Origin: Candidatus Omnitrophota bacterium
GTDB lineage: Bacteria > Omnitrophota > Gorgyraeia > 1-14-0-20-64-10
DNA length: 64,000 nt
Direction of reading: 5' to 3'
NCBI GenBank assembly: GCA_016201735.1
Contig: JACQCH010000007.1
Span: forward strand, 17,900-81,899
The translations under genes and the position numbers were made by a program. Below the pieces are notes generated by a model. It did not search any database. It saw only the letters and a list, made by a program, of their open reading frames with translations, and was not told the origin of the DNA. Each line of letters opens with the position of its first letter. The stretch's first letter is position 1. Below are positions 12,763 to 42,812 of this stretch, in pieces.

Positions 12763-12919
12763 GTGATCAGCTCCGATTACGAAGATCTGTTCAACACATT
12801 AAACGCTCATAGGATCAAGTACCTTGTGGCGGGGGCCCATGCGGTCATGTTCTACTCGGAGCCCCGGTTTACCAAAGACAATCTGGATCTGGCCAAGCTG
12901 AGAAAGCGTCGGGATGAGT
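12763..12919 (+). pseudogene. Truncated N-terminal fragment of a nucleotidyltransferase-like gene (…IKYLVAGAHAVMFYSEPRFTKDNLDL…)
   Basis: 52-codon frame ending in a TGA that overlaps the thrS ATG; sequence resembles the N-terminus of Pol-beta-superfamily NTase toxins. No plausible full-length gene. Confidence 0.3.
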
Positions 12920-14632
12920 GACGAGTTGCATAAACTGCGGCACAGCGCGGCGCATATCCTGGCGCAGGCGGTGAAACGCCTCTGGCCCGGGACGAAGCTG
13001 GCCATCGGCCCGCCGATCGAGGAGGGTTTCTACTACGATATCGCCCCACCGCAGCCCTTGACCGACGAGGATCTGCCGAAGATCGAGCAAGAGATGGCTA
13101 AGATCATCAAGGGGGACATCCCTTTCCAGCAGTCCTGGATGTCGAAGGAAGAAGCATCCTCTTTTTTTGAAAAGCGGGGCGAACCGTTCAAGCAGGAGAT
13201 TATCCGGGACATTCCGGACCCGAAAGTCTCGATCTACACGAATGGGGATTTTGTGGATCTGTGCGAAGGGCCCCACATGAATTCCACCGGAGAGGTGAAG
13301 GCATTCAAGCTCACGTCGCTCGCCGGGGCCTACTGGCGGGGGAACGAGCGGAATCCCCAGCTGACCCGGGTGTACGGGACCGCCTTTTTCAAGCCGGAGG
13401 AGCTGGAGAATTTTCTTAAAGTCCGGGAAGAGGCCAAGCGCCGAGACCATCGGAAACTGGGCCAGAGCTTAAAGTTGTTTTCGATTCTTGAGGAGGCGGG
13501 AGCCGGTTTTGTCTTCTACCATCCCAAAGGGGCGGTGTTGAGGCAGATCATCGAGGAGTACTCGCGGCGGCAGCATGCTTCCCGCGGCTACCAGCCGGTG
13601 ATCACCCCCCACATCATCCGGAGCGACATCTGGGTCCGGTCCGGCCATTACGATTTCTACAAGCCGAACATGTACATCTTCCGGATCGAGGAGCAGGAGT
13701 GGGGGGTCAAGCCGATGAATTGCCCGGGCCACATCCTGATCTACAAATCGGCCCTGCGCAGCTACCGGGAGCTTCCCCTCCGGTTCTTCGAGCTGGGGAC
13801 GGTCTACCGGAACGAGAAGTCCGGCGTCCTGCACGGACTCCTGCGGGTCCGGGGATTCACGCAGGACGACGCCCACATCTTCTGCCGGTTGACCCAATTA
13901 GAGGCGGAGATCGAAGCGGTCCTGGAATTTATTCAGGCCGCCATGCGGGATTTCGGGTTTTCAGAGTACCGGGTGGAGATGAGCACCCGCCCGCCGGAAT
14001 TCTTAGGAGATGCGGGACAATGGACCCGCGCCGAGGAGATTCTGATTCGGGTTTTGAAGGCCCGGAACATTGTTTACACGGTAAGCCCCGGAGCGGGCGC
14101 TTTCTACGGGCCGAAGATCGACATCCATATCAAGGACACGCTGGGCCGGTACTGGCAATGCGCCACCGTCCAGCTGGATTTCGTCCTGCCGCAGCGGTTC
14201 GACTTGAGCTACGTGGAAGAGAACGGTCAGGAAGCGCCGCCGGTGATGATTCATCGGGCGATCTTCGGATCGCTGGAACGGTTCTTGGGGACGCTGATCG
14301 AGCAGTATGCCGGCGCCTTCCCTGTCTGGCTGGCTCCGGTGCAGGCGGTGGTGATTCCTCTGACGAAAGACCAGGAGCCGTACGCCGGGACCCTGCTGCG
14401 GGATCTGGCCGAGAAGAATCTGAGGGTGGAGTTGGACGATCGCCGGGAAACATTGCAGGCTCGGATCCGGGACGCGGAGATGAACAAGGTACCGTACATG
14501 CTGATCGTCGGAAAGCGGGAAGCGGAGTCAGGAAAGATTGCTGTCCGGGCCCGGGGCACCGGCGATATCGGCGCGATGTCAGTGACGGAATTCGTTGAGC
14601 GTGTAACACTGGAAGTCCAGCAAAAACGATGA
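12914..14632 (+). CDS. thrS: Threonine--tRNA ligase (lacks the N-terminal TGS domain)
   Basis: 572 aa starting at the N2/editing-domain motif LRHSAAHIL; class II motifs and anticodon-binding domain present. Confidence 0.9.
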   Translation: MSDELHKLRHSAAHILAQAVKRLWPGTKLAIGPPIEEGFYYDIAPPQPLTDEDLPKIEQEMAKIIKGDIPFQQSWMSKEEASSFFEKRGEPFKQEIIRDIPDPKVSIYTNGDFVDLCEGPHMNSTGEVKAFKLTSLAGAYWRGNERNPQLTRVYGTAFFKPEELENFLKVREEAKRRDHRKLGQSLKLFSILEEAGAGFVFYHPKGAVLRQIIEEYSRRQHASRGYQPVITPHIIRSDIWVRSGHYDFYKPNMYIFRIEEQEWGVKPMNCPGHILIYKSALRSYRELPLRFFELGTVYRNEKSGVLHGLLRVRGFTQDDAHIFCRLTQLEAEIEAVLEFIQAAMRDFGFSEYRVEMSTRPPEFLGDAGQWTRAEEILIRVLKARNIVYTVSPGAGAFYGPKIDIHIKDTLGRYWQCATVQLDFVLPQRFDLSYVEENGQEAPPVMIHRAIFGSLERFLGTLIEQYAGAFPVWLAPVQAVVIPLTKDQEPYAGTLLRDLAEKNLRVELDDRRETLQARIRDAEMNKVPYMLIVGKREAESGKIAVRARGTGDIGAMSVTEFVERVTLEVQQKR

Positions 14633-19025: not shown

Positions 19026-19032
19026 AGAAATG

Positions 19033-19240
19033 TCCCTGCGGTGTTCGTGATTGGTCGAAAGCGATTCTGAACCAACAGCAGAATCGTAGGGAGCTTGACT
19101 TCAGCGGTGGAGAGCAGGCCCACCGGGTGTTGAAACAGGCCCGGAGGGAAGCAAGAAACCGGTGAGCAGGTTCCCGATGGTGAAGATACCAGGTTCAAGA
19201 ATGGATTCGACACACGGCATTCGCGGGGACGTTTTTTTGA
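19033..19240 (+). ncRNA. Candidate small RNA (~205 nt), possibly 6S RNA-like
   Basis: Starts just downstream of the promoter above and ends at a T7 run (gacgtttttttg) 22 nt before rarA. 5' GTCCCTGCGG pairs with 3' CCGCGGGGAC to close a long terminal helix; internal hairpins cgattctg..cagaatcg and ccggg..cccgg; no coding potential. Confidence 0.35.
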
Positions 19241-24081: not shown

Positions 24082-24573
24082 ATGCTGAAAATCAAAAGTT
24101 CAATCCTACAGAAGATGATTCAGTATTGCGAGAAGGAAAAACAGGAGGCCGGCAACGAAGCATGCGGCTATCTTGTGGGCCGGGATGGCGTTGTAACGGA
24201 GGCTTATCTCGTAGAAAACGCTCATCGGAGCCCCACGAGTTATCACATGCAGCCCGTAGCACAGCTCGTGCTTCAAAAGACGCTTCGGGAGTTGAAGTTG
24301 GAGGAGATGGCAATTTATCATTCTCACGTGGCGACACAAGCTTATCCTTCGCGCCGCGATATCGATAACGCGACAGCTGTTCAAGATCTTTTCGACGGCC
24401 ACTACGTACTGGTCTCATTGCAGGAACCGGGCCGGCCTATTGTTAAAGCCTTCAAAATCCGGGACGGGAATGTTCAGGAAGAGGAAATTCAGGAGGTGTC
24501 GCCCGAAGGGCGTCATCCTCGCGGAAGCGAGGATCAGCGAAGGGAAGATTCCCGCTTTCGCGGGAATGACTAG
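24082..24573 (+). CDS. JAMM/MPN+ metalloprotease (Mec+-like), C-terminally extended by a REP-like element
   Basis: JAMM motif E…HSHV…S..D (EMAIYHSHVATQAYPSRRD). Last ~20 codons and the stop are encoded by the palindromic element at 24513-24570. Confidence 0.7.
   Translation: MLKIKSSILQKMIQYCEKEKQEAGNEACGYLVGRDGVVTEAYLVENAHRSPTSYHMQPVAQLVLQKTLRELKLEEMAIYHSHVATQAYPSRRDIDNATAVQDLFDGHYVLVSLQEPGRPIVKAFKIRDGNVQEEEIQEVSPEGRHPRGSEDQRREDSRFRGND
24513..24570 (+). repeat. Bipartite REP-like palindromic element, copy A (hairpin ATCCTCGC-GGAA-GCGAGGAT plus hairpin GATTCCCGC-TTTC-GCGGGAATGAC)
   Basis: Two adjacent perfect hairpins; the second hairpin recurs at 27484-27509 (inverted) and 32540-32563. Confidence 0.7.
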
Positions 24574-25521
24574 ATGGGCATGAATCGGCTGCTGCGGATC
24601 GGAACCCGGGGATCTCCATTGGCACTCGCGCAGGCGGCGGAGGTGAAGCAGGCGCTGGAGAAGGGGCATCCGGGTTTGAGCTGCGAGCTCGTCGTGTTAA
24701 AGGTAAGCGGCGATGACTTCACGGTCTGGAAAGGGAACGAAGGGGTTCCGTTGAAGGGGCTGTTCGTTAAGGAAATCGAAGAGGCCCTTTTGAAAGGAAG
24801 CATCGAGTTGGCCGTCCATTCGGCGAAAGATCTTCAAGCGGATCTTCCGGCGGGATTGAAGATCGCCGGGGTGCTGCCGCGGAAGGATCCGCGGGACGCG
24901 CTGGTGGGCCGAGATGGAAAAGGGCTGGCGGATCTGCCGGCGAACGCCCGGATAGGAGTCAGTTCTTTGAGACGGCAGTCGCAGTTGAAACGGCTGCGAC
25001 GGGACCTGGAATTGTTGCCGATCCGGGGGAATGTGGATACCCGGCTTAAGAAATTGGATGCCGGCGAATACGACGCGCTGGTTCTGGCGGTCTGCGGGTT
25101 GATCCGGCTGGGGCGTGAGAGTCGGATCACGGAAATTCTAGAGACGGCGAAGATGATGCCGGCACCTGGGCAAGGAGCGCTGGCGGTGGAGATTCGGGAG
25201 GACAATCAGGAAGTTGCTCAACTGCTGCAGGCCGTGAACGACCCGGATGCCGAGACGGAAGTGGAGGCGGAGAGGGCCTTCTTGAAGGCGCTGGGCGGGG
25301 GCTGTTCGGTTCCGGTCGGGGGATTGGCCCGGGTCGAGGGAGAGAATTTAACGTTGACCGGAGCGGTCTTCTCCCCGGACGGATTGAAGGTGGTGCGTGA
25401 ACAGATCGTCGGCCCCCGACAGGCGGCCCGGCGGATCGGCACGGAACTGGCCAGCCACCTGCGGGCCGCCGGCGCCGACCGGCTGCTGTACGGCCAGTGG
25501 AAGAAACCGGTGGGCGCGTGA
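24574..25521 (+). CDS. hemC: Porphobilinogen deaminase (hydroxymethylbilane synthase)
   Basis: IGTRGSPLALAQA N-terminus, 315 aa. Confidence 0.9.
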   Translation: MGMNRLLRIGTRGSPLALAQAAEVKQALEKGHPGLSCELVVLKVSGDDFTVWKGNEGVPLKGLFVKEIEEALLKGSIELAVHSAKDLQADLPAGLKIAGVLPRKDPRDALVGRDGKGLADLPANARIGVSSLRRQSQLKRLRRDLELLPIRGNVDTRLKKLDAGEYDALVLAVCGLIRLGRESRITEILETAKMMPAPGQGALAVEIREDNQEVAQLLQAVNDPDAETEVEAERAFLKALGGGCSVPVGGLARVEGENLTLTGAVFSPDGLKVVREQIVGPRQAARRIGTELASHLRAAGADRLLYGQWKKPVGA

Positions 25522-27050
25522 TCGGAGCCGTCTATTTCGTTGGGGCAGGGCCCGGCGATCCGGAGCTGATCACTCTGCGGGGAGCGGAACTTCTGAAGAA
25601 GGCCGACTGCGTGATTTACGACCGGCTGGCGGATCCGCGGCTCCTTCGATGGACGAAACGAACCTGTCAGCGAATCTACGTCGGCAAAAAATCCGACGAG
25701 GGAGGAGAAAGTCAGACCCGGATCAACCGGCTGCTCGTTCAGAAAAGCCGGCGGCATTCGACCGTTGTCCGTTTGAAAGGAGGAGACCCGACGGTTTTCG
25801 GGAGGATCTCCGAAGAGATGGGAGCCCTTTCGAAAGCCGGCATCCGGTTTGAGATCATTCCTGGGGTCAGTTCCGTTTGGGCGGCCGCCGCGGCGGCGGG
25901 GATTCCACTCACGGACCGGGAGTTCAGCTCCAGTGTGGCGGTTGTAACCGGCCAGCAGGCCGCGGGCAAAAAAGAGTCGGTTCGGTGGAAAAATTTAAGC
26001 CGTGGTGTGGACACCCTGGTGGTCTTGATGGGGCGCTCCGCCCTGCCGACGATTGTCCGGAGAATTCGGGCGGCCGGCCGGCCGGCATCGACGCCGATCG
26101 GGCTGATCCGCTGGGCGACAACACGGCGGCAGGAAATCTTGATCAGCACCCTGGGGAAGATCCGAGAAGAGTTAAAGCGGCGGCCCGAGTTCGGGCCGCC
26201 GGTCGTGACGATTATCGGTGAGGTAGTCCGTCGGGTGGAAAACAAGCCGTTGAAAGGGCTTCAGCCCTTGAAAGGCAAACGGATTTTGGTGACCCGGCCG
26301 AAAGAGGACGCGGCCGGCTTGGCGCGCCGGCTGGAAGCGCTGGGGGCGACCTGCGTGAGTCTGCCGACGATCGAGATCCGGCCGAGGGGACTTAGCAGTT
26401 CGGAGGCGAAACGGTTATCGGAGAAACTCCCTCGATACGGCTGGATTTTGTTCACCAGCCATCACGGCGTCGAGGCCTTGCAGAGGATTGTTCGGCGAAG
26501 GAAGGGACTCATCCGAGGGAAGATCTGCGCCATCGGGCCCCGGACCGCCGAATCGGTCCGGGCGGCCGGGTTGAAAACGGAGTTGGTGCCGTCGGAATTT
26601 TCGACGGATGGAATCCGGGAAGCGTTCCGCCGCATCCAAATCCGTTCCCGGAAGATTCTGATCCCACGCTCGAACCTCGGGGCCCGGGACGCGCTGGCGC
26701 AGGAACTGCGCCGCAGGGGGGCTTTGGTGGATGAGGCGATTCTGTATGAAACGGTGAATCTTAAAATTCCTCCGGTCCGGTTGAAAAAAGCGCTGCATCG
26801 GATCAATGCGGCGACCTTCACCTCCGCCTCGACGGTCAAGGGGTTCTTTAAAGCACTTGAGGAAGCGAAGATTCCGGTCCGTTCGGCGTTGAACGGAGCG
26901 GCGGTGGCGGCGATCGGACCGGCGACGGCGGATGCCCTTAAAAGAGGGGGGATTCGCCGGTTTCATCTGCCGAGGGAGGGTTGGACAATTGAAGGCCTCA
27001 TTAAAACTGTGATAGACGTAACCGGTCATGGTTCGACGGGCTCACCATGA
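25497..27050 (+). CDS. Bifunctional uroporphyrinogen-III C-methyltransferase / uroporphyrinogen-III synthase (CobA-HemD fusion)
   Basis: N-terminus VYFVGAGPGDPELITLRG (SAM-dependent tetrapyrrole methylase); C-terminal HemD-like half. 517 aa; start may be GTG ~25519. Confidence 0.8.
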   Translation: MEETGGRVIGAVYFVGAGPGDPELITLRGAELLKKADCVIYDRLADPRLLRWTKRTCQRIYVGKKSDEGGESQTRINRLLVQKSRRHSTVVRLKGGDPTVFGRISEEMGALSKAGIRFEIIPGVSSVWAAAAAAGIPLTDREFSSSVAVVTGQQAAGKKESVRWKNLSRGVDTLVVLMGRSALPTIVRRIRAAGRPASTPIGLIRWATTRRQEILISTLGKIREELKRRPEFGPPVVTIIGEVVRRVENKPLKGLQPLKGKRILVTRPKEDAAGLARRLEALGATCVSLPTIEIRPRGLSSSEAKRLSEKLPRYGWILFTSHHGVEALQRIVRRRKGLIRGKICAIGPRTAESVRAAGLKTELVPSEFSTDGIREAFRRIQIRSRKILIPRSNLGARDALAQELRRRGALVDEAILYETVNLKIPPVRLKKALHRINAATFTSASTVKGFFKALEEAKIPVRSALNGAAVAAIGPATADALKRGGIRRFHLPREGWTIEGLIKTVIDVTGHGSTGSP

Positions 27051-28123
27051 CCGGAAGCCGTGGGGTGGCGATGAAGATGCAGGCCCGGTTCCCGAACTAT
27101 CGGCCGCGGCGGCTCAGGCAATTCCCGGTTTTGCGCCGGCTGATCCAGGAGACGCGGCTGATGCCGGAGCAGCTGATCGCTCCGGTTTTTGTCGCCTCGG
27201 GTCTGCGGCGGCGGGAGCCGATCCTGTCGATGCCCGGAGTTTTCCGGCTGCCGCCGGCGGAGGCGGTGGAGGAGGCCGCGGCTCTTTCGAAACGGAAGAT
27301 CGGAGGGATCCTTCTGTTTGGAATTCCGGACCGGAAGGATGAGGCAGGATCGGGCGCCTTCGATCCCGACGGGGTGGTTCAGCAGGCGGTCCGGGCGATC
27401 AAGCGGGCGGTCCCGGATTTCACCGTGATCACGGACGTCTGCCTCTGTGAATACACGGCTCACGGCCACTGCGGGATTGTCCCGTCATTCCCGCGAAAGC
27501 GGGAATCGATCCTCCGGTCAAGCCGGAGGATGACGGTTTCCATCGATAACGACGCGACACTGCCGGTCCTCGCGAAGATCGCGGTTTCCCACGCGAAGGC
27601 GGGGGCGGACCTCGTCGCTCCGTCGGCGATGATGGACGGGCAGGTGGGGGCCATCCGGCGCTCACTCGACGCGGCCGGTTTCACCGAGGTTCCGATTATG
27701 AGCTACGCGGCGAAGTACGCGTCGGCCCTTTATGGACCGTTTCGGGAAGCGGTCGAGTCGGCCCCGAAATTCGGGGACCGGCGCAGCTACCAGATGGACC
27801 CGGCGAACCGGGAGGAGGCGCTGAGGGAGGTGGCGCTGGATATTAAGGAAGGGGCCGACCTGGTCATGGTCAAGCCGGCGATCGCTTACCTCGACGTGCT
27901 CAAGGCGGTGAAGGAAACGTTCCATTGGCCGACCGCCGCCTACCAGGTGAGCGGAGAGTACGCCCTGATCAAAGCAGCGGCTTCCAAAGGGTGGGTCGAC
28001 GAGAAACAACTGGTCCTGGAATTCGCCGCCGGGATCAAACGGGCGGGAGCGGATCTTATTATTACCTACTACGCTAAACAGCTTGCCGAATGGCTGAATG
28101 GAGGAAAGAATTCCCGTGAATGA
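27047..28123 (+). CDS. hemB: Porphobilinogen synthase (delta-aminolevulinate dehydratase), Zn-type, with an in-frame REP-like insertion
   Basis: RPRRLR, DVCLCEYTAHGHCG Zn site, IDNDATL. Between HGHCGIV and SIDNDATL sits a ~17-aa loop (PSFPRKRESILRSSRRMTV) encoded by the palindromic element at 27484-27534. Confidence 0.85.
   Translation: MTGSRGVAMKMQARFPNYRPRRLRQFPVLRRLIQETRLMPEQLIAPVFVASGLRRREPILSMPGVFRLPPAEAVEEAAALSKRKIGGILLFGIPDRKDEAGSGAFDPDGVVQQAVRAIKRAVPDFTVITDVCLCEYTAHGHCGIVPSFPRKRESILRSSRRMTVSIDNDATLPVLAKIAVSHAKAGADLVAPSAMMDGQVGAIRRSLDAAGFTEVPIMSYAAKYASALYGPFREAVESAPKFGDRRSYQMDPANREEALREVALDIKEGADLVMVKPAIAYLDVLKAVKETFHWPTAAYQVSGEYALIKAAASKGWVDEKQLVLEFAAGIKRAGADLIITYYAKQLAEWLNGGKNSRE
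27484..27534 (-). repeat. Bipartite REP-like palindromic element, copy B (inverted relative to copy A), inside the hemB reading frame
   Basis: gtcattcccgcgaaagcgggaat + atcctccggtcaagccggaggat; its reverse complement matches the copy-A architecture. Confidence 0.7.
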
Positions 28124-29894
28124 AGAACTGAAGCGTTATGCCAAGTGCATCAACCCGGAAGCGCAGGCCAACGAGATTTCCCGGTTCGAGAAGGAAATCC
28201 TTCGGCTCGAACAGCAGCAGCTTGAACCGGATGATTTCAAGAAGTTCCGGCTCGAGAACGGAGTGTATGGGATCCGGGGCGTCATGGACGAGCACATGAT
28301 CCGGATCAAGGTCCGGTACGGAGTGATGGACGCCGATCAGTTGGAAGCGGTCGCCGACATCGTGGAAAAATACGCCACGCCGAAGGTGGGACACGTCACG
28401 ACCCGGCAGGCGATCCAGCTCCACAAGATCAAACGGCACAACGTTCCGGCGGCGCTTAAACATATCGCCGAAACGGGGCTGACCGCGCGGGAAGCCTGCG
28501 GCAACACGGTGCGCAACGTCACCGCCTGCCCCTTCGCCGGGATCTCGGCGGAAGAGGCGTTCGACGTCATCCCGTACGCCGACGCGGTGAGCCGGTATTT
28601 CCTGCGCAACCCGGTCTGCCAGAACCTGCCCAGGAAATTCAAGATTGCCTTCGAGGGCTGCCCGACCGACCATGCCCGGGTCCCGATCCACGACTTCGGC
28701 GCGGTGGCCCGGGTCCGGGAGATCGACGGCAAGCAGGTGCGCGGGTTTGCCACGTACGTCGGCGGGGGATTGGGGACGGTTCCGTTCGCCGCCCACCTGC
28801 TGGAGGAATTCACCCCGGTGGATCTGCTGATCCCGACCATCGAGGCGGTGATCCGCCTGTTCGACCGGCACGGAGACCGGAAGAACCGGGCCACGGCCCG
28901 GATCAAGTTCGTCATCAAGAAATGGGGGATCGACGAGTTCCGGACGCAGTTCGCAGCCGAGCGGAAGGCCGTCCTGATGACCAGCTCCGGCAAGACCGAT
29001 TGGGAGATCCCGCTCTACGAGCAGGAAGCGCCGCCGGCCAACGTCAAGGCGAAGATCCCGGTGATGCCGGTCCAGATGAAGGAGTACGAGCGCTGGCGCC
29101 AAACCAACCTGTTCAGGCAAAAACAGACCGGTTACACGGCGGTCCAGATCCGCTGCGTTATGGGGGACATCACCGTCGAGCAGATGCGGGGCGCGGCAGC
29201 GATCGCCCGGGAGTTCAATGGCGGGCGGATCCGGACGATGATCACGCAGAATATTCTGCTCCCGTGGATCCGGGAAGAGGCCGTTCCCGCGGTTTATCAG
29301 CGGCTGGTCCAGTTGGGGATTGCCCAGACCGATGCCGGGTCGCTGGCCGACATCACCCGCTGTCCCGGAGCGGACACCTGCCAAATCGCGATCACTCATT
29401 CGCGGGGGCTGGCGGTGTCGATTGGGGAAATTTTCAGCAACGGGAGCAAGGCCTTGTTGGACGACGTGGCCATGAAAGATTTGACGATCAAGATCAGCGG
29501 CTGCCCCAACTCCTGCGGCCAGCATCACATCGCCGACATCGGGTTCCACGGGGCCGCATCCCAGATCAACGGCCACGCGGTCCCACACTACATCGTGATG
29601 GTCGGCGGCCGGACCGCGGAAGGAGTGGCGGAGTTCGGCCTGCGTCTTGGGATGGTTCCGGCCAAGCGGGTGCCCGAGGCGACCAAGAAGCTGCTCACTC
29701 TGTACCGGGACGAGCATCACAGCGGCGAGGCGTTCCGCCAGTGGGTGCATAGGGTCGGGGTGGATCGGCTGAAAACGGAACTCGATCCGATCCGCACGCT
29801 CCCGGCCTTCGAGCAGAGTCCGGAGATGTACGAGGACCTCGGCGCGATCGGCGAGTTCAAGCTGGAAGTCGGGAAGGGGGAGTGCGCGACGTGA
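28098..29894 (+). CDS. sir: Ferredoxin-dependent assimilatory sulfite reductase (siroheme/4Fe-4S hemoprotein, NirA/Sir family)
   Basis: 598 aa; two NIR_SIR ferredoxin-like halves; siroheme-4Fe4S cysteine motif CPNSCGQHH…; set among cysH/sat/cysK and siroheme-precursor genes. Confidence 0.8.
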   Translation: MEERIPVNEELKRYAKCINPEAQANEISRFEKEILRLEQQQLEPDDFKKFRLENGVYGIRGVMDEHMIRIKVRYGVMDADQLEAVADIVEKYATPKVGHVTTRQAIQLHKIKRHNVPAALKHIAETGLTAREACGNTVRNVTACPFAGISAEEAFDVIPYADAVSRYFLRNPVCQNLPRKFKIAFEGCPTDHARVPIHDFGAVARVREIDGKQVRGFATYVGGGLGTVPFAAHLLEEFTPVDLLIPTIEAVIRLFDRHGDRKNRATARIKFVIKKWGIDEFRTQFAAERKAVLMTSSGKTDWEIPLYEQEAPPANVKAKIPVMPVQMKEYERWRQTNLFRQKQTGYTAVQIRCVMGDITVEQMRGAAAIAREFNGGRIRTMITQNILLPWIREEAVPAVYQRLVQLGIAQTDAGSLADITRCPGADTCQIAITHSRGLAVSIGEIFSNGSKALLDDVAMKDLTIKISGCPNSCGQHHIADIGFHGAASQINGHAVPHYIVMVGGRTAEGVAEFGLRLGMVPAKRVPEATKKLLTLYRDEHHSGEAFRQWVHRVGVDRLKTELDPIRTLPAFEQSPEMYEDLGAIGEFKLEVGKGECAT

Positions 29895-31171
29895 GGATGA
29901 CGAACGCAACCTGCTGGCGGGAAGCCCAACGATACTTAGTCGGCGGGGTCAATTCGCCGGTGAGGTCATTCCGGGCGGTGGGAGGGCGGCCCTTCTTTGT
30001 GGACCGGGGACAGGGGCCGACTCTCTGGGATGTGGAGGGGAACCGTTACCTCGATTACGTCTGCTCCTGGGGGGCGCTGATCCTGGGTCACCGGCCGCCG
30101 GAAGTTCTGAAGGCGGTCAATGAAGCATTGGAGCGGGGGACGACGTTCGGCACACCCACTCCATGGGAAGCGGAACTGGCGAAAGAAATTTCGCAAGCGG
30201 TCCCTTCAATGGAGCAGATCCGGTTCGTCTCCTCCGGGACGGAGGCCGTGATGAGCGCCTTAAGGCTGGCCCGAGCGGTGACGGGCCGGAATAAGATTCT
30301 GAAATTTGACGGGGCCTATCACGGCCATTCGGATGCGCTGTTGACGAAAGCCGGGTCCGGGATGGCGACCCTGGGACTGCCCGCGGTGCCGGGAGTTCCC
30401 AGACAGGTCACGCAAGACACGATCACGATCCCATTCAACGATCCGAAGGCCGTCGAGCAAATGTTCCGCCGTCACCGGAAACAGATCGCCTGCGTTTTGG
30501 TGGAGCCGGTGCTGGCCAATGTCGGGGTGATCCCGCCGGCCGAGTGGTTTTTGCAGAGACTGCGCGCTTTAACGAAAGAGGACCGATCCCTGCTGATCTT
30601 CGACGAGGTGATTACCGGTTTCCGGGTGGCCTACGGCGGCGCGCAGGCACGGTTCGGCGTCAAGCCCGACATCACCCTTTTAGGCAAGGTGATCGGCGGG
30701 GGATTTCCCGTCGGGGCGTATGGCGCGAACCGCCGGCTGATGCAGTGGGTGGCGCCACAGGGACCGGTCTATCAGGCCGGCACGTTGGCGGGCCATCCGG
30801 TAGCGATGGCGGCCGGCCTAGCGACCCTGCGGGCCTTGCGGCGGCCGGGGGTCTATTCCCAACTGGAGAAAACCGGCGCGGGACTTCGGAAAGGACTTTT
30901 GCGTTTAAGCGTGGGGATGGGGGTTCCGATCGTGGTGAATCAAATCGGCGGATTGCTGTCCTTGTTTTTTAGAAGCAGTACCATCGAGACGGGGAAACAG
31001 GCGCGGGCTTCAAACACCCGCCGGTACGCCCGGTATTTTCGGGGGATGCTGGCCCGGGGCGTGTATCTGCCCCCGTCGGCTTACGAAGCATGGTTCCTCT
31101 CGACGGCCCACGGGGAGCGGGAGATCGAGAAGACGCTGAAGGCCCATTCAGCAGCCCTGGAGGAATTTTAA
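29882..31171 (+). CDS. hemL: Glutamate-1-semialdehyde 2,1-aminomutase
   Basis: GGVNSPVRSF N-terminus, PLP-lysine region; alternative start ATG 29897. Confidence 0.9.
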   Translation: MRDVRMTNATCWREAQRYLVGGVNSPVRSFRAVGGRPFFVDRGQGPTLWDVEGNRYLDYVCSWGALILGHRPPEVLKAVNEALERGTTFGTPTPWEAELAKEISQAVPSMEQIRFVSSGTEAVMSALRLARAVTGRNKILKFDGAYHGHSDALLTKAGSGMATLGLPAVPGVPRQVTQDTITIPFNDPKAVEQMFRRHRKQIACVLVEPVLANVGVIPPAEWFLQRLRALTKEDRSLLIFDEVITGFRVAYGGAQARFGVKPDITLLGKVIGGGFPVGAYGANRRLMQWVAPQGPVYQAGTLAGHPVAMAAGLATLRALRRPGVYSQLEKTGAGLRKGLLRLSVGMGVPIVVNQIGGLLSLFFRSSTIETGKQARASNTRRYARYFRGMLARGVYLPPSAYEAWFLSTAHGEREIEKTLKAHSAALEEF

Positions 31172-31174
31172 AAG

Positions 31175-32110
31175 ATGTCTCGGCGCGGCGTAGCCAAATC
31201 GATTCTGGAATTGATCGGAGACACCCCGATGGTGGAGTTGACCAAGGTGGCGACTCCGTCGATGGCTAAGGTGTGGGGGAAGCTGGAGGCGTTCAATCCA
31301 GGCGGGTCGGTCAAGGACCGGATCGCCTTCGCGATGATTGAGGATGCCCGGGAGCGGGGCCTGCTCAAAGAGGGAGGAACGATCGTCGAGCCGACCAGCG
31401 GCAACACGGGGATCGGGCTGGCGATGGTTTCGGCGGTCCGGGGGTATCGGCTGATCCTGACCCTGCCGGAAGGGATGAGCATGGAGCGGGTCTCTCTGCT
31501 GGAGCGGTTCGGCGCGGAAGTGGTGATCACTCCGGCGAACGAAGGGATGGCCGGTGCGGTGAAGAAAGCGCAGGGACTGGCGGCTTCGATGCCCGGTTCT
31601 TTTATGCCGCACCAATTCTCGAACCCGGCGAATCCCAGGATCCATCGGCAGACCACCGCCCAGGAAATTTTGCGCTCGACCGACGGGGAATTCCACGCCT
31701 TTGTCGCAGGGGTCGGCACGGGTGGGACGATCACCGGCATCGGGGAAGTCTTAAAGAAGCGCAACCCGGAGATCCGGGTGATCGCCGTGGAACCGGCCTC
31801 TTCCGCCGTCATCTCCGGGAAACCGGCGGGGGTCCATAGGATCCAGGGAATCGGGGCCGGGTTTGTGCCGGAGGTACTCAACCGGTCGGTGATCGATGAG
31901 ATCATCCCGGTGGAGGACATGGACGCCTATCAGATGGCCCGCCGGCTGGCCAAGGAAGAAGGGGTGTTGGCGGGACTCTCCGCTGGCGCGGCGGTTTGGG
32001 CCGCCCTGAAAGTGGCCGAGCGGCTGGGGCCGGAGAAAACCATCGTCGTGATCCTGCCGGATACCGGAGAGCGATACCTGAGCATCGATCCTTACTTCGA
32101 GGAATTTTAG
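31175..32110 (+). CDS. cysK: Cysteine synthase (O-acetylserine sulfhydrylase)
   Basis: PLP motif GSVKDR, 311 aa. Confidence 0.9.
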   Translation: MSRRGVAKSILELIGDTPMVELTKVATPSMAKVWGKLEAFNPGGSVKDRIAFAMIEDARERGLLKEGGTIVEPTSGNTGIGLAMVSAVRGYRLILTLPEGMSMERVSLLERFGAEVVITPANEGMAGAVKKAQGLAASMPGSFMPHQFSNPANPRIHRQTTAQEILRSTDGEFHAFVAGVGTGGTITGIGEVLKKRNPEIRVIAVEPASSAVISGKPAGVHRIQGIGAGFVPEVLNRSVIDEIIPVEDMDAYQMARRLAKEEGVLAGLSAGAAVWAALKVAERLGPEKTIVVILPDTGERYLSIDPYFEEF

Positions 32111-32111
32111 C

Positions 32112-32534
32112 GTGAAACCTTCCAGCGGAGTCCGTTACGCATTGACCGCTCTGGTGGATCTGACCCTTCACCAGCAGACCGGGCCGGTGACCGTCGCGGC
32201 GATCGCCAAGCGCCGGGGGATTCCGGTCCGGTACCTGGAACAGCTGTTCAACCGACTCCGGCGTCGCGGGATCGTAGCTGCCGAGCGGGGTCCCCGAGGA
32301 GGGTACCGTTTAAACCGAACCCCCGGGGAAATCCCAGTCAGTGAGATTTTCCACTGCTTGGAATCGGTCGATGCCGTTCACCCTGAGCAAGCCGATCCTT
32401 CCCTTGCGGTCTGGAAACAGGTGGAGGCGGCGGTCCAGACCACGTTGGAAGCGACCACCCTCGAGGCCCTGGTCGCCCAAGCCCGGGAGAGGGTCCCTTC
32501 TCCCATCAACCACCCGTTCACCTTCCACATCTGA
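32112..32534 (+). CDS. Rrf2-family transcriptional regulator (CymR/IscR-like; only one Cys, so probably no Fe-S cluster)
   Basis: N-terminal wHTH (VRYALTALVDL...IAKRRGIPVRYLEQLF). Confidence 0.8.
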   Translation: MKPSSGVRYALTALVDLTLHQQTGPVTVAAIAKRRGIPVRYLEQLFNRLRRRGIVAAERGPRGGYRLNRTPGEIPVSEIFHCLESVDAVHPEQADPSLAVWKQVEAAVQTTLEATTLEALVAQARERVPSPINHPFTFHI

Positions 32535-32539
32535 CGAGG

Positions 32540-32563
32540 GATCCCCGCTTTCGCGGGGATGAC
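32540..32563 (+). repeat. REP-like palindrome, copy C (GATCCCCGC-TTTC-GCGGGGATGAC), immediately after the Rrf2 stop codon
   Basis: Same hairpin family as 24547-24570. Confidence 0.6.
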
Positions 32564-32710
32564 GCTGCGCGTCAATTTTTCTTCCTGCCCCTCTTGTATT
32601 TTGGACGGCGAATCAGGTATGCTTTTTATGTAAAAGCACATTGACGCCAACGACCCTGTTATCAAGGCAAATCCGCCGCAAGGCGGAGACGCAAAGCTAG
32701 AGGGCCCCCT

Positions 32711-32780
32711 CGGGGCAGCCAGTTACCAGGGACGTAAAAACGGCCTTGGCTCCTTATAACAAGAGAGACCCAAGGCCGTT
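32711..32780 (+). repeat. Leader module 1: 38-nt motif GGGGCAGCCAGTTACCAGGGACGTAAAAACGGCCTTGG plus hairpin AACGGCCTTGG…CCAAGGCCGTT
   Basis: Direct repeat of the module at 32869-32938. Confidence 0.5.
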
Positions 32781-32868
32781 GGCGTTTTGACCCTTGCCCA
32801 TCCTGCCGTTTTATCCATCACCTTGTTTTTTCAAAACCGATCAGGTAATTATTGGACTAGGCAGTTTG

Positions 32869-32947
32869 AGGGGCAGCCAGTTGCCGGGGTCAAGAACGGC
32901 CTTGATTTCTGGCGATGGATCAGAAATCAAGGCCGTTCTTGTTTTGC
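32869..32947 (+). terminator. Leader module 2: repeat GGGGCAGCCAGTTGCCGGGGTCAAGAACGGCCTTGA, 19-bp perfect hairpin (AGAACGGCCTTGATTTCTG / CAGAAATCAAGGCCGTTCT) and TGTTTTG; terminator/attenuator-like, 24 nt before the RBS of the next gene
   Basis: Perfect long stem followed by a U-rich tract, then AAAAAAGGAGG and ATG 32971. Confidence 0.4.
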
Positions 32948-32970
32948 GTAAATAAAAAAGGAGGAAACCA

Positions 32971-33912
32971 ATGCGAGGCTTTCATTTGTTGGCTATTGGA
33001 GGGCTGGTGGTGGGTCTGATCGGGGTTACCGGGAACGAGGCGCTGGCCGCCAAGGCAGAGGCCGAAGCGACCAAGGCGGATTCAGAGAATGCGGCCCTGG
33101 ATGCATCGAGTTTTGAGGGAACAGTCGCCGATTTCCAAAGCCAGGGGTTGAGCCGGTCCGAAGCGGAAGCGTTGGTCCGGCAGGCGTCCGGTGAGGTCGG
33201 CGCGTCTCGGGACCTGCCGTCTGCTGGAAGAGAAATAAGAGAGCAAAGCGGCAACTTACTCCAGGGCTCGACCGGCTTAGGCGGTGGGACCACGGGCGGC
33301 CAGGGCCAAGGACAAGGAAACAGCCAGGGAGCTTCTTCTAATAAGAATAATGAGACCACCGGTGGAAACAATCAAGAGCGCGGCCAATCCGGTGGATTTG
33401 GCGGGAACCAAGAGCATGGTCAATCCGGTGGATTTGGTGGAAGCCAGGAGCGTGGCCAATTCTCTAATGAGGGGCAGGGTCGGGGCCAAGAGCGCGGCCA
33501 ACCCTCTAATGAAGGACAGGGTGGGAACCGGGAGACCGGTGGTAATCGAGAAGGCAACCGTGAGATGAGCGGAAATCGGGAGGGTAATCAAGGAGGCGGT
33601 CGTGAAACGGGCGGCCGTGAGATGGGTGGTCGCGAGGCAGGTGGCCGCGAGACAGGGGTTCGTGAGACCGGAGGCCGCGAAACGGGCGGACGCGAGGCGG
33701 GTGGTCGCGAGCAACCGGAACAGCGCGAATCCGGGGGTGGCCGTGAGAGCAACCGGGAACAGCGCGAATCCGGTGCTGGCCGTGAGCAGCGGGAGCAACC
33801 CCAGATGGAACGCCCACAGATGGAGCAGCCCCAGAGGGAACAGCCTCAGCAGGAGCGGCCCACATCCGAGCGGCCCGAAGGGCCTGTGCCGGGTGCACCG
33901 GAGGTTCACTAA
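32971..33912 (+). CDS. Secreted low-complexity protein with ~12 tandem GGRE(T/A/M) pentapeptide repeats, also Q/E/R/G-rich
   Basis: Signal peptide MRGFHLLAIGGLVVGLIGVTGNEALA. The DNA carries 15-nt tandem repeats (ggNggNcgNgagNNN) at ~33520-33720. No recognisable catalytic domain. Confidence 0.55.
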   Translation: MRGFHLLAIGGLVVGLIGVTGNEALAAKAEAEATKADSENAALDASSFEGTVADFQSQGLSRSEAEALVRQASGEVGASRDLPSAGREIREQSGNLLQGSTGLGGGTTGGQGQGQGNSQGASSNKNNETTGGNNQERGQSGGFGGNQEHGQSGGFGGSQERGQFSNEGQGRGQERGQPSNEGQGGNRETGGNREGNREMSGNREGNQGGGRETGGREMGGREAGGRETGVRETGGRETGGREAGGREQPEQRESGGGRESNREQRESGAGREQREQPQMERPQMEQPQREQPQQERPTSERPEGPVPGAPEVH

Positions 33913-34027
33913 AATTTTTGGGAATATTTTTGGAGTTGGCGGATCTAATGGTTAGAGAGTTAATCGAAAATTAATTTGAATACTAAAAAGACAATTTGGC
34001 AAGAAGCAAAAAGGAGGAGGAAACGAC

Positions 34028-35299
34028 ATGGATAAGGCAATCTTTCGATGCACAGCGGTTGTTTTAGCGGTGGGGCTGGTTCTCTGGAGCCCAGGGATGC
34101 CGCTGGCTCTAGCGCTTGACGCAGAGGTAATCACTCAATGTCGGGAGGCGATCGCTAATGATTCCACTCTCGATCCTGCGGTCAAGGAGATCGCCTTGAA
34201 TGAAGTGGTGCCGAAGTTGGAGGAATCCACGAAGCCAGATGCTGCTCCGGAAGTGAAGGCTGAGGCCAAGATTGTGGAGACTACGGCAGGAACGCTTCAT
34301 CAAGCGAGCGAGGCAACCAAGAAAGCCCTGGAGAATTCGGACACGGTGGTGAAGGCCACCGTCGATGGACTGGTCAAGAATGGAGTTTCCGCCAGCGAAG
34401 CCAACAAGGCCGGAGAGAAAATGAAGACGGATCTGGCGAAGGCGCGTGAGACGCTTCAGCAAGGGGGAACTCTGCAGGACGCCGCGAAGTATTTTGAGAG
34501 CTGCCAGAAGACGTTCACCGATTACTCCGGTTCCGTGGGGAAGGATCAAACCCTAAACATGAAAGACATCCTTCTTAACAGCGGCAGCGGCGGACGCCCG
34601 GAGGATTTTAGATCCATGCAGATGTTGGGCTCCGTCATCGATTCATCCCGGAACGGCAACGTGACCGAAGCGGCGATGAGGGCCCATTTCGAAGCGACCT
34701 TCCACGACGTCATTCTTCAAGGGGGGACGGAGGGGAAGAATGGGCCGCCTCCCGAAGCGATGCGGGGATTGATGGAGCAGATGGTGGCTTGCGGAGTGAA
34801 CCCAATGGAAGTGGCGCAGAAGTCCTACGAGTCTTACCGAGCGGCGAACCCCGGACTTGAGACATTTGGCAATCCGGTCGGCGGTCCGAATGAGATGTTC
34901 GGGCCGGGACCCGGAATGGGGAATGTCCCACTAGATGCGGGCCGATTTTCTGGGCCTAGCCCAGAGGCCATCGCTGCGATGAGTCCGGAGCAAAAGGCCG
35001 GATATGAGGCGTGGAAAAGTGGGGATTCCGCTGTGATTCACGAGATGATGATGAACGACACCATGAGGGCGGCCGTTGAGGCAGGAACCCCCCCGCGCGA
35101 GGTGCTGGAACAGATGGCCCGCAATGAGGTGATGTACCGGGAGATAATAAGTCCCGCTGAGGTTACCCAGGCCCGGGTAGAGGCCCAACAGCAAACGGCG
35201 TTAGATAAATATGCGGACGGGCACGTGTTGTGTCCTCCAGGGAAGACGCATAATGAGGCATGGAAAGCAGGAGACCCTCCCGATCAGCACTGTCTATAA
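34028..35299 (+). CDS. Secreted hypothetical protein (423 aa)
   Basis: Signal peptide MDKAIFRCTAVVLAVGLVLWSPGMPLALA; AT-rich promoter region with TTAATCGAAAATTAA palindrome upstream. Confidence 0.5.
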   Translation: MDKAIFRCTAVVLAVGLVLWSPGMPLALALDAEVITQCREAIANDSTLDPAVKEIALNEVVPKLEESTKPDAAPEVKAEAKIVETTAGTLHQASEATKKALENSDTVVKATVDGLVKNGVSASEANKAGEKMKTDLAKARETLQQGGTLQDAAKYFESCQKTFTDYSGSVGKDQTLNMKDILLNSGSGGRPEDFRSMQMLGSVIDSSRNGNVTEAAMRAHFEATFHDVILQGGTEGKNGPPPEAMRGLMEQMVACGVNPMEVAQKSYESYRAANPGLETFGNPVGGPNEMFGPGPGMGNVPLDAGRFSGPSPEAIAAMSPEQKAGYEAWKSGDSAVIHEMMMNDTMRAAVEAGTPPREVLEQMARNEVMYREIISPAEVTQARVEAQQQTALDKYADGHVLCPPGKTHNEAWKAGDPPDQHCL

Positions 35300-35309
35300 A
35301 TCTCCAGAT

Positions 35310-36363
35310 TTAGAAGTGGGCGGTCAGGGAAGTGGTGGCGGTCCAGTCGACGTAATCGCCGGTGGGGTCGTTCGAGTTTAAAGAAGTGTGGCTGAAGCTG
35401 GAGCCGATGCTCCAGGTTTTGTTGAAGTCGTACGTGCCGGAGATCGTCCAGATCTGGGTGTCGTCGTACCGGGACTCGGCTGTGATGCCGCTGACCTGAC
35501 GGTGGAGGTAGTTTTTCAGTTCGTAGGAGTAGCTGGCGTTGGCCGAGAGTTTTTTGGTGATCGGCCGGTTGACCGAGGCGGTCAACTTGTAGTCCTGCGC
35601 ATCGTAGAAGTCCTGCCGGGCGTCGTTGGAATCGTGGAAGTACCATTCCTGCTTGACCTTCAAGAGGGCCTCTTTCCACGTCGTCCCCAATTCGTATCGG
35701 AACCGGTGCCGAGTGTCTTCCCGAGGGGTGAGCGTATCCAACCCGGCGCCGTCGCGGGCCCTTTTCGAGATGTAATGCCGGACGAACCATTCGTATCGGA
35801 CCGCATGAAACCACCGCCCCCAAAGATTCTGCCGCAGCCCAATGGAGGGTTTGATCTCCCGGTAATTGGAGGGACCGGAGGAGGGATACCAGGTGTCCCC
35901 CAAGTCGACACCCGCGTCCGCCCGCCACATCCGCCCCGGCTGCCAAGTCAATTTCACCGGCGTCAGGGTTTGGGAGGTATAGGTGCCGTCGCCGTACTCG
36001 AAGTATTTGTCAAAGGAGCCGGAGTAGGAGGTCTGCCAGCTTAGGGTGGGAGTCAGCTTTTTGGAGAGACTCAGATAGAGGGATTCTTCCGAGTACCAGT
36101 CGCCGTTGCGCTCCGCAGCGTTGGCCGGGTTTTTCTCGTAGGAGATCCCTTGAGAGACCTCTCCGGAGAACCGGAGCCGTCTGGCCTTGCGGCGCTCCTC
36201 CAGGATCTGCTGGGCCCGCCGCTTGATGGCGGCGACCACCTCCTGAGTCGTCGGCGCAGCCGGTTCCTCAGCGAAACTCAAACTGGCCTGATTTGGAAGC
36301 AGAAGGATCGATCCGACAAGAAGCCCGATGCCTAGGACCCGCTTACTGCTGGCGCCGTTCACG
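35310..36363 (-). CDS. Outer-membrane beta-barrel protein (porin-like); start uncertain
   Basis: Signal peptide KRVLGIGLLVGSILLLPNQASLSFA from GTG ~36363; alternating beta-strand pattern; C-terminal …TATTSLTAHF (terminal Phe). Confidence 0.55.
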
Positions 36364-36798
36364 GAGCACCTCCTCTTTCTGGTAGGCCCGTTCTTGGTAC
36401 CGCTCGAAGGCCTTCGCCCGCTTGAGGGCCGCATCGATCTGGGTCCATTCCGTCGCCCTCGCTTCCTCCACCAGATCATGGAGAAGCCGCTCCAGCATGT
36501 CCCGCTCCTTGCGCAGGCCGTCCAACTCGGCGTAAAGCGAGGCCTTCTGGGCTTCGTTGGGGACGGCGTTCAACGCCTTCCTCTTTTGGACCATCTGCTC
36601 ATAGATCTGCCTGAGGGCATCGTTGACCTTGAGGATCTGCTGTTTTAACGGCTCATCCTCGGTGGCAACGTTGAGGGCTTCTTCATGGGTGAGGGGCGTT
36701 TCTTCTTCGTCGGGCGGGGCCGCTTCCAAGCGGGGAACCAACCAAAGGGAACTGCTTAGGAGAACACCTAAGGCAAAAAACCTCAGATCTTTTCCCAT
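36343..36798 (-). CDS. Periplasmic LTxxQ-motif coiled-coil protein (Spy/CpxP-like)
   Basis: Signal peptide; LTHEE motif; helical, charge-rich; co-oriented and overlapping with the OMP gene. Confidence 0.45.
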   Translation of the reverse strand: MGKDLRFFALGVLLSSSLWLVPRLEAAPPDEEETPLTHEEALNVATEDEPLKQQILKVNDALRQIYEQMVQKRKALNAVPNEAQKASLYAELDGLRKERDMLERLLHDLVEEARATEWTQIDAALKRAKAFERYQERAYQKEEVLRERRQQ

Positions 36799-36904
36799 CC
36801 ATCCTCCTCTATTCTTCGGGGAGAGTGAAGCAAATTGGAAGTAGTTTAGGGAAGAACCTTCTGTTTGTCAAGGAGGTTATGATATGTTATCCTGACTTCT
36901 TCAG

Positions 36905-37460
36905 GATGACGAAGGAAGGGATCCGCCTCAAGCTCCTTGAAAAGCTTCGCCAGCAGCCGCCGAAAGCCCGTTTAAAGAAGAGCGCTGCCATCGCGCGAAA
37001 ACTCCGGCGTTTGCCCCTCTACCGGAAGGCCAAGGTTCTCCTCTGCTACGCGGCCGTCGATGGGGAAGTGGAGACCCGTCCGATCTTGGATCAGGCCATC
37101 GCCGACGGTAAGCGGGTCGCTGTTCCGATCACGTTCCGGCGGGACAAGAAACTGGCCGCCGCCGAGATCAAGGATCCCAAGAAGGGTTTGAACTTCAAAG
37201 GGCCGTTCGGGATTCCGGAGCCTTCGCGGCATCTCCATTGGAGGATCGCTCCTGATAAGCTGGACTTGGTCTTAGTCCCCGGTGTCGCGTTCGACCGCCG
37301 GGGCCATCGGCTGGGCCGGGGCTTAGGGTACTTCGACCGTTTCTTGGAGAAGGTGCCGGCGGATGTTCCCCGGATCGGGTTGGCCTTCCGGTTTCAGGTG
37401 GTGAGAGAACTTCCCTTCGAACCGCACGACCAGCCGATGCATCGAGTGATCACAGAATGA
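36905..37460 (+). CDS. 5-formyltetrahydrofolate cyclo-ligase
   Basis: 5-FTHF_cyc-lig motifs (…VPGVAFDRRGHRLGRGLGYFDRFL…); ORF track starts at 36825 but a start at ATG 36905 fits the family better. Confidence 0.75.
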
Positions 37461-42738: not shown

Positions 42739-42812
42739 TGCCCTGTCGTCCAATGGTAAGACACCAGATTCTGGATCTGGGTATCTAGGTTCGAGTCCTA
42801 GCGGGGCAGCCA
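42739..42812 (+). tRNA. tRNA-Gln (CTG), U1:A72, CCA encoded
   Basis: Acceptor TGCCCTG/CGGGGCA, anticodon stem CCAGA/TCTGG with loop TTCTGGA, T-arm CTAGG-TTCGAGT-CCTAG, 3' GCCA. Confidence 0.75.

Follow-up and report, generated by a model that had tools for sequence, protein, structure and literature searches.

Genes and hairpin repeats at the locus

We analysed a 64,000-nt stretch of an Omnitrophota genome (the window; all coordinates count from its first letter) in which hemB, the gene encoding porphobilinogen synthase (PBGS), contains within its reading frame an inverted pair of small hairpins of the repetitive extragenic palindrome (REP) type. The genes of this region encode an ATP sulfurylase, an ABC ATPase, a Prok-JAB protein, HemC, a CobA/HemD fusion and HemB, together with a sulfite/nitrite reductase-like protein, HemL, a cysteine synthase-like protein and an Rrf2 regulator.

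The first-pass annotation of this DNA had described a bipartite REP-like palindrome, which we confirmed at 24512-24570 and, inverted, at 27484-27534, with a single hairpin at 32541-32560. One of the two hairpins has the form ATTCCCGC-N4-GCGGGAAT and was matched three times by a search of the window (24548-24567, 27487-27506 and 32541-32560) against 0.05 matches expected, the third copy bearing two compensatory changes. The other hairpin (GTCATCCTC...GAGGAT) lies at 24512-24534 and, as its reverse complement, at 27508-27534. The window was also scanned for the architecture itself, that is GTC followed by an AT-initiated stem of 7-9 bp and a loop of 3-6 nt, which gave six units, distributed over four loci, where shuffled sequences gave 0.49, and added a fourth site, the unit at 36889-36911. 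The six units are arranged as two inverted dimers (24511-24571, here dimer 1, and 27483-27535, the hemB dimer) and two single units (32537-32564 and 36889-36911).

The tag of five of the six units is CGTC, because a C precedes the GTC in these five, and in the remaining one it is AGTC. Every stem starts with AT, and the stem/loop sizes are 8/4 in four units, 9/5 in one and 7/5 in another. The unpaired 3' tails (CGA, CAG, CTT, CCC and AAC) usually keep the first C and vary in the rest, the family consensus being approximately CCA. On the plus strand dimer 1 (24512-24570) reads GTCAT-CCTCGC-GGAA-GCGAGG-ATC, an 11-nt spacer and GATTCCCGC-TTTC-GCGGGAATGAC; the hemB dimer, with the units in reverse-complement arrangement, reads at 27484-27534 GTCATTCCCGC-GAAA-GCGGGAATC followed directly by GATCCTCCGG-TCAAG-CCGGAGGATGAC. 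In the dimers the tags face outward and the tails abut (ATC/GAT). The two dimers had been taken for copies of one ~55-nt unit, and this holds for their bipartite plan only, since the first hairpin has an 8-bp stem with a GGAA loop in dimer 1 and a 9-bp stem with a CTTGA loop in hemB, and the halves, which are 11 nt apart in the former, abut in the latter.

When folded as single-stranded DNA every unit of the window adopts the predicted hairpin, and for the hemB dimer the fold is a three-way junction with CCGTCAT/ATGACGG as its closing stem (-22.5 kcal/mol with DNA parameters, z about -6). Coding DNA holds four of the six units, although the sample is small. A search of Rfam returned no family for the REP units, and a 68-aa concatenation of the four open frames of the repeat, compared with proteins, gave three weak matches among 44 candidates.

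Assignment to the CGTC-tagged REPs

According to Di Nocera, De Gregorio and Rocco (2013, PMC3733652), bacterial REPs fall into superfamilies tagged with GTAG or with CGTC. A CGTC REP has an unpaired CGTC (or TGTC/CCTC) tag, an AT-initiated stem of 8-9 bp, a loop of 4-5 nt and a short tail; such REPs are frequently inverted dimers and are sometimes found in-frame in genes, in which case the dimers encode 20-30 residues (PMC3733652). The family CGTC-1 is the same as dRS3 of Neisseria and RPE-6 of Rickettsia, RPE-4 corresponds to CGTC-4, and no dedicated transposase was found for the CGTC families in that survey of tagged REPs (PMC3733652, Table 1). About half of the dRS3 copies of Neisseria form a longer oriented motif, NTS (CGTCATTCCCGCGMAVGCGGGAATCYRG), which is bound and cut by SsnA, a 94-aa GIY-YIG nuclease acting on single-stranded DNA only and on one strand only, and the GTC located 5' and the C located 3' of the palindrome are reported to be critical for cutting and binding (2025 study, PMC11893778). 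NTS-like repeats, designated SRM, flank ssn genes across many phyla, and in Neisseria NTS and SsnA restrict the integration of transforming DNA (PMC11893778).

Compared with the 28 bases of the NTS consensus, the units of the window at 27483-27510, 24544-24571 and 32537-32564 have two, three and four mismatches, respectively, and in the hemB unit both mismatches fall within the last three bases. Moreover, all three of these ATTCCCGC-type units keep the 5' GTC and the 3' C. The degenerate SRM pattern is matched by two of the six window units, the mean of the shuffled sequences being 0.7. The element thus belongs to a described family, the CGTC-tagged REPs including dRS3/NTS (PMC3733652, PMC11893778). 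New here are the occurrence in Omnitrophota, the location in hemB and a cassette whose nucleotides are conserved although it is polymorphic and shared across divergent lineages.

The same hairpin was found in at least 120 viral contigs (among the matches listed), with loops GCAG, GAAG and GAAA, as well as in many phyla. In three viral-contig loci a tblastn search placed Ssn homologues 35-60 nt from an NTS match. The SsnA orthologue of N. gonorrhoeae is a single 94-aa protein (Pfam GIY-YIG, 4e-19) with 16 NTS within 1 kb.

The insert in hemB

The insertion in hemB, earlier described as some 17 residues between HGHCG and IDNDATL, is exactly 51 nt, or 17 codons, and keeps the reading frame. The protein reads DVCLCEYTAHGHCG-IVP-SFPRKRESILRSSRRMT-VS-IDNDATL, and the insert lies four residues past the cysteine that is the third zinc ligand. 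Solved PBGS structures, retrieved as PDB homologues, align along the whole of HemB and leave a gap at the insert, and the length of this loop varies naturally among them. Among 75 broadly sampled HemBs (distant relatives of at most 61% identity, among the metagenome matches listed) the loop from HGHCG to xDNDATL has six residues in 59.

An AlphaFold model of HemB built with 32 sequences has a mean predicted local distance difference test score (pLDDT) of 81 and a predicted template modelling score of 0.82. It shows a confident TIM barrel, with values above 90 around the insert, in which residues 144-166 are coil and residues 151-162 have a pLDDT below 50. The surface loop that the first-pass annotation had expected is what the model returns, and because the low-confidence coil is set inside a confident barrel, the insert is predicted to be a disordered excursion in a permissive surface region of an otherwise normal enzyme.

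Other ways of accounting for the insert were considered and rejected. Translational bypassing is not consistent with a frame that is open through the insert and has no matching take-off and landing codons; removal in the manner of an intein would involve an element far larger than 51 nt; and an assembly artefact is rejected because the cassette is present in four independent assemblies with differing flanks.

Distribution and history of the hemB cassette

The same insert occurs at the same position and in the same frame and orientation in three further HemB proteins, P0002 (locus L001), P0009 (L002) and P0023 (L221), which are 81%, 70% and 69% identical to that of the window. Among the four carrier genes the insert DNA is identical at 45-49 of 51 positions whereas the remaining gene is 65-79% identical, and at third codon positions the figures are 15-17 of 17 in the insert and 45-59% elsewhere in hemB. 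No elevated identity was observed at the third positions of the 20 flanking codons on each side, and from these comparisons the synonymous sites outside the insert appear to be near saturation. An ancestral protein loop had been named as the alternative to a repeat, and it is the repeat that stands, because carriers whose HemB proteins are just 70% identical have the segment in common at the DNA level too.

The differences that exist among the carriers are of three kinds: the hairpin loops are GAAA, GCAA or TTCC, the last being the inverted loop; the first loop of P0023 has a nested hairpin of 28 nt; and a single A-to-G substitution preserves pairing, as G.U, in the sense strand. In the loops the substitutions are non-synonymous (RK to LP, R to G). 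As the stems and synonymous sites are kept while the loops change the protein, the constraint on the insert concerns the nucleic acid rather than the peptide.

This bears on the view that the 17 residues are a selected feature of PBGS, for instance a basic loop near the active site, with the palindrome incidental. The peptide is indeed similar in the four proteins, rich in Arg, Lys and Ser and located four residues past the last zinc-binding cysteine. Nevertheless the same DNA unit occurs in non-coding places, in other genes and in other frames, the synonymous conservation exceeds what protein selection needs, the loops accept non-synonymous changes and a nested 28-nt insertion, and the segment, predicted to be disordered, is absent from the closest relative of a carrier. 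We consider this view scarcely credible.

The four carriers also have in common non-canonical codons flanking the insert, P/T before it and T-V/I-S after it, which are not part of the element in its copies elsewhere (L134 and dimer 1). As all four share these non-element codons, they argue for a single origin of the cassette over repeated hits, so far as sequence comparison can tell. In a HemB tree from which the loop was omitted the carriers do not form a clade, and 33 of the 119 nearest HemB homologues have a loop 12-30 residues long, with inserts of at least three types; both observations would suit independent, site-specific insertions of the same dimer into a hemB loop whose DNA is a preferred target. 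The shared flanking codons speak against such insertions, and because uninterrupted loops vary widely in sequence there is no conserved target in the loop. Independent insertion therefore seems to us quite improbable.

The closest comparison is between P0002 and its sister in the tree, P0004 (L224), whose loop is canonical (VVKNQQ). The hemB gene of L224, which has no cassette, is 94% identical in DNA to that of L001 overall and 97% in the 3' half; the two genes agree again from precisely the point at which the cassette ends downstream, and the 17 codons immediately upstream of it differ by three substitutions. Blocks of DNA on either side of the loop are almost invariant in all seven genes compared, encoding DVCLCEYTxHGHCG upstream and VDNDATL downstream. 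The segment had been expected to be specific to the lineage. It is absent from the PDB homologues and from most relatives, but by these alignments it is not private to the lineage of the window, being patchily shared among four divergent relatives and polymorphic between two close ones. The simplest account would be exchange of the cassette by homologous recombination through the invariant blocks, or its replacement by an uninterrupted allele.

A different reason for the persistence of the hemB copy would be a function of the nucleic acid, either as an Ssn/NTS cut site that bounds recombination tracts or as an mRNA hairpin that tunes translation, folding or stability. The stems kept exactly amid nearly saturated synonymous sites, the sharp cassette boundaries between near-identical relatives and the REP units that bracket a 4.37-kb lineage-specific segment of the window (see below) can all be read in this way; moreover, Neisseria NTS and SsnA limit transforming-DNA integration, and REPs are known as RNA-level elements. 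We nevertheless find such a function unlikely. The close relatives L224 and P0003 do well without the insert, others have unrelated palindromes or nothing at the same site, the stems have none of the compensatory covariation that a purely structural constraint would permit, and the window contains no ssn gene. A related proposal, which we advance only tentatively and with low odds, is that the hemB loop is an exchangeable cassette site in which selection at the nucleotide level or homogenisation maintains the REP dimer, itself an NTS-like cut site that would mark the end of recombination tracts. If true, it would explain why the cassette is the same base for base in hemB genes that are 30% divergent in protein, as well as the polymorphism between near-identical genomes and the diversity of palindromes at the hemB loop.

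The end of the JAB gene and other in-frame palindromes

The JAB protein of the window, with its JAMM motif HSHVATQAYPSRRD intact, reads ...EVSPEG and then RHPRGSEDQRREDSRFRGND across dimer 1 (24512-24570), followed by the stop TAG at 24571-24573, which directly adjoins the ATG of hemC. The element had been credited with both the last ~20 codons and the stop of this gene; the codons are its own, the stop lies just outside it. In four relatives the syntenic JAB genes encode proteins of 135-141 aa without the dimer and end at or overlap the start of hemC, with C-termini such as ...HVQEEGIEEE* or ...EVTPEGLS*, the latter with an ATGA stop/start overlap. Because these four genes terminate before the element, as a check against JAMM orthologues had been meant to establish, the dimer was inserted at the extreme 3' end of the JAB gene, replacing its last codons.

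Other palindromes were found in the clade. The DNA of two relatives with long HemB loops contains, in one case, a hairpin of -64 kcal/mol on GGGGCTGTCCCC and, in the other, a pair of GGGACAGTCCC motifs. In L223 the GGGACAGTCCC motif occurs ten times in 7 kb, in pairs ~43 nt apart, inside hemC, cobA/hemD, hemB and the Rrf2 gene. An in-frame dimer of CGTC REPs is located in the HemD part of cobA/hemD in L224 and L001 and is missing from the window. In-frame palindromic inserts are thus a common feature of these genomes, in which the hemB loop is one of several permissive sites. Further REP copies were found in relatives and in other genomes: a near-identical complete dimer is intergenic in a metagenome-assembled genome (MAG) of Planctomycetia, another Omnitrophota MAG has a related dimer on the 3' side of a gene, and the second half of the hemB dimer is 89-94% like REPs of Rhizobium and Sinorhizobium plasmids.

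The first-pass annotation regarded an insertion of this kind as unusual. It is uncommon, but not unprecedented, because in-frame REP insertion has been documented before in the RPEs of Rickettsia and in Opitutus terrae.

Origin and spread of the element

The interpretation that we favour, with a probability of about 0.72, is that the element is a dimer of CGTC-tagged REPs, one half of the dRS3/NTS type and the other a related half with a different stem, carried as a translated selfish passenger. Units of this kind are small non-autonomous hairpin repeats that spread and persist as selfish DNA. Here they have been gained or lost even among closely related genomes, and dimers have entered genes of the clade on no fewer than three occasions, at the 3' end of the JAB gene, in the hemB loop and in cobA/hemD. 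Each of these coding dimers has a length that is a multiple of three and an open frame, and the copies are probably translated passengers, persisting only in positions where the protein can accommodate them. Their exact preservation would be due to a partner that recognises the sequence, most likely a nuclease of the Ssn type whose gene lies in another part of the genome, or to homogenisation with other copies in the genome, and the hemB cassette would move between lineages by homologous recombination through the near-invariant flanking blocks. Neither an ssn nor a RAYT gene is present in the window, so that the mobilising enzyme is an inference.

Several points weigh against this interpretation. 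No ssn (GIY-YIG, cd10448) homologue was found in the 64 kb, either by tblastn with N. gonorrhoeae SsnA or by Pfam on ~60 open reading frames (ORFs), and no RAYT/Y1 transposase domain was detected by Pfam in these same ORFs. The Ssn literature describes binding, cutting and an insertion sequence-like gene architecture, mobilisation of the repeats by Ssn not having been demonstrated. The NTS-type unit of hemB misses the SRM pattern, if only in its 3-nt tail (GAT and not YNB), and the units of the second type do not fit SRM at all. The REP count rests on four loci, all within the window. In hemB the element substitutes for the canonical 6-aa loop instead of plainly interrupting the loop codons, and neither a target-site duplication nor a clean empty site could be defined for the element.

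An inverted dimer with a conserved unpaired 5' tag that is present in several copies is also what would be expected of a REPIN mobilised by RAYT, a tyrosine transposase of the IS200/IS605 type, as are the GTAG REPs of Pseudomonas and E. coli. We consider this very improbable here: the tag is CGTC and not GTAG, the CGTC families have no transposase association in the survey (PMC3733652), and a Y1 transposase domain was not found among the ~60 window ORFs.

With these copies the CGTC/NTS family of hairpin repeats is extended to the Omnitrophota, an uncultured phylum. The hemB alleles offer a natural experiment, in which an essential enzyme has a 51-nt selfish element four residues away from its zinc ligands, and close relatives have carrier and non-carrier alleles. 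Questions on the tolerance of proteins to repeat-encoded loops, on an Ssn-like partner and on recombination boundaries outside Neisseria are thereby made testable. For annotation it should be remembered that peptides such as SFPRKRES and DSRFRGND in predicted proteins are repeat-derived.

The REP-bounded segment

In L224 a gap of 37 nt separates the Rrf2-like gene from the gene encoding 5-formyltetrahydrofolate cyclo-ligase that comes after it, whereas in the window 4371 nt (32535-36905) lie between the two. This 4.37-kb segment is bounded by the REP at 32537-32564 on the left and the REP at 36889-36911 on the right, both in the same orientation and both ending ...GGATGACG on the plus strand. 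At the empty site of L224 an ATGACG starts the cyclo-ligase gene, and in the window that ATG is placed in the head of the right REP. By analogy, the segment resembles the dRS3/NTS-bounded variable regions of Neisseria.

The right REP separates a strong Shine-Dalgarno sequence, AAGGAGG (36870-36876), from the homologous ATG of the cyclo-ligase gene (36906), and the hairpin may bring the Shine-Dalgarno sequence near the start or, alternatively, may occlude it.

The segment contains a c-di-GMP-I riboswitch (32656-32730; score 59.5 bits) and three ORFs for which Pfam gave no match (32971-33912, 34028-35299 and, on the minus strand, 35310-36479). The first of them, controlled by the riboswitch, has seven overlapping 15-nt tandem repeats GG(N)GG(N)CG(N)GAG... 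at 33580-33711, which should encode a pentapeptide-repeat protein rich in Gly, Arg and Glu, and other short repeats at 33370-33441 and 33717-33786.

Table 1. REP units, their host genes in the window and variant or related palindromes in relatives (positions in relatives are preceded by the locus name)
Feature	Position	Strand	Remarks
Prok-JAB/JAMM gene	24082..24573	+	HxHx7Sx2D motif intact; last ~20 codons from dimer 1; TAG abuts hemC ATG
CGTC-tagged REP unit CGTC-ATCCTCGC-GGAA-GCGAGGAT-CAG	24511..24537	+	left half of dimer 1; translated ...RHPRGSEDQ in JAB tail
NTS-type REP unit AGTCATTCCCGCGAAAGCGGGAATCTTC	24544..24571	-	right half of dimer 1; translated DSRFRGND; fits SRM pattern
hemB, porphobilinogen synthase, Zn type	27077..28123	+	intact; protein identical to a Candidatus Omnitrophica MAG annotation
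NTS-type REP unit CGTCATTCCCGCGAAAGCGGGAATCGAT inside hemB	27483..27510	+	26/28 of NTS consensus; forward orientation is the hemB sense strand
In-frame insert of 51 nt, 17 codons (SFPRKRESILRSSRRMT)	27484..27534		hemB loop after HGHCG
Second REP unit of hemB dimer, CGTC-ATCCTCCGG-CTTGA-CCGGAGGAT-C	27508..27535	-	9-bp stem, 5-nt loop
Single NTS-type REP CGTCATCCCCGCGAAAGCGGGGATCCCT	32537..32564	-	compensatory stem changes; 3 nt past Rrf2 stop; fits SRM pattern
Single CGTC-tagged REP CGTC-ATCCTGA-AGAAG-TCAGGAT	36889..36911	-	head reads ATGACG on plus strand
Inverted-loop variant of the hemB insert, TTCC for GAAA	L002 872-899		stems unaltered; in frame
Nested 28-nt hairpin variant of the hemB insert	L221 2400-2460		in frame
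CGTC REP dimer CGTCATCCTCGCGCAGGCGAGGATCGATCCCCCCTTTCGGGGGGATGACG in HemD part of cobA/hemD	L224 3416-3465; L001 ~4450-4480		in frame; read TSSSRRRGSIPPFGGMT
Second palindrome family, GGGACWGTCCC pairs ~43 nt apart in hemC, cobA/hemD, hemB loop and Rrf2 gene of one relative, and a related hairpin (-64 kcal/mol) in the hemB loop of another	L223 515-582, 1549-1592, 3412-3456, 6492-6532; L222 3409-3477		in frame

Other features of the window

A further element of ~205 nt is present in two copies that are 87% identical (2349-2554 and 6938-7146, plus strand) and is bounded by inverted repeats of 22-24 nt, ATGACCCCGCCCCTCCATGGGT and ACCCATGGAGGGGCGGGGTGA. On inspection of the sequence each copy is downstream of a sigma-70-like promoter, and the 3' arm includes GGAGGGG and the GTG start of the next gene (rpmH in one case, ndk in the other). 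The RNA folds with -115 kcal/mol (z = -9.3), and neither an Rfam match nor protein homologues were found for the element. It may represent a structured 5' leader, or a miniature inverted-repeat transposable element, that would sequester the ribosome-binding site and the start codon. Its translation agrees with the N-terminus of SsnA at 13 of 22 residues, a weak resemblance and probably a chance one: tblastn aligned 22-26 aa with E values of 0.02-0.05, Pfam sees no GIY-YIG domain, a word-index search gave nothing and the full library returned only a spurious repeat protein.

A probable integrated element (42739-48908) lies beside a tRNA gene (42739-42809). Its genes, all on the minus strand, encode a large serine recombinase (42798-44417), the large subunit of a terminase (44853-46154), a DnaB-like helicase (46674-48377) and a MerR regulator (48384-48908).

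The gene dnaA (845-2254, minus strand), together with rpmH, yidD, yidC, parA and a ParB-like ORF, indicates that the window adjoins the replication origin. Also present are three clustered tRNA genes and a 6S RNA (84.5 bits), the positions listed being 10764-11027 and 19030-19233. The first 65 nt of the gene encoding threonyl-tRNA synthetase (MSDELHKLRHSAAHILAQAVK, 12914-12978) are duplicated 367 nt upstream (12547-12611) with 89% identity, at the end of the ORF 11759-12550.

Comparison with known systems

The nearest described repeats are the CGTC REPs of families CGTC-1 and CGTC-3/4 (PMC3733652), with which the window units share the tag, the stem and the loop and apparently the short tail, here variable in sequence, and the frequent arrangement in inverted dimers, as well as sites beside the 3' ends of ORFs or, sometimes, in-frame within them, where the dimers encode ~20 aa. 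They differ in their host, as the Omnitrophota are outside the five phyla listed, and in the dimer halves being 0-11 nt apart; moreover, hemB is absent from the host genes reported in the part of the supplement that we consulted.

With dRS3/NTS (PMC11893778; PMC3898611) the units have in common the 25-nt core CGTCATTCCCGCG-AAA-GCGGGAATC, the GTC that sets the orientation and the 3' C, both conserved, and the bracketing of a variable gene segment in the manner of NTS-gene-NTS. Unlike these, four of the six window units are in coding DNA against ~2% of the NTS of N. meningitidis, the 3-nt tail is different, and the window has neither arrays of the NIME type nor an ssn gene.

The RPEs of Rickettsia (PMC3733652, refs 13 and 14) are likewise palindromic and inserted in-frame in genes of functional proteins, where they are tolerated in permissive regions, although RPE-1 is larger (~100-150 nt) and the hosts are obligate intracellular alphaproteobacteria; the likeness is drawn from their published description. 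The REPIN-RAYT system (PMC3116915) has a GTAG tag and a RAYT transposase, neither of which is found in the window, and resembles the present element in being formed of inverted doublets of tagged hairpins that are non-autonomous repeats.

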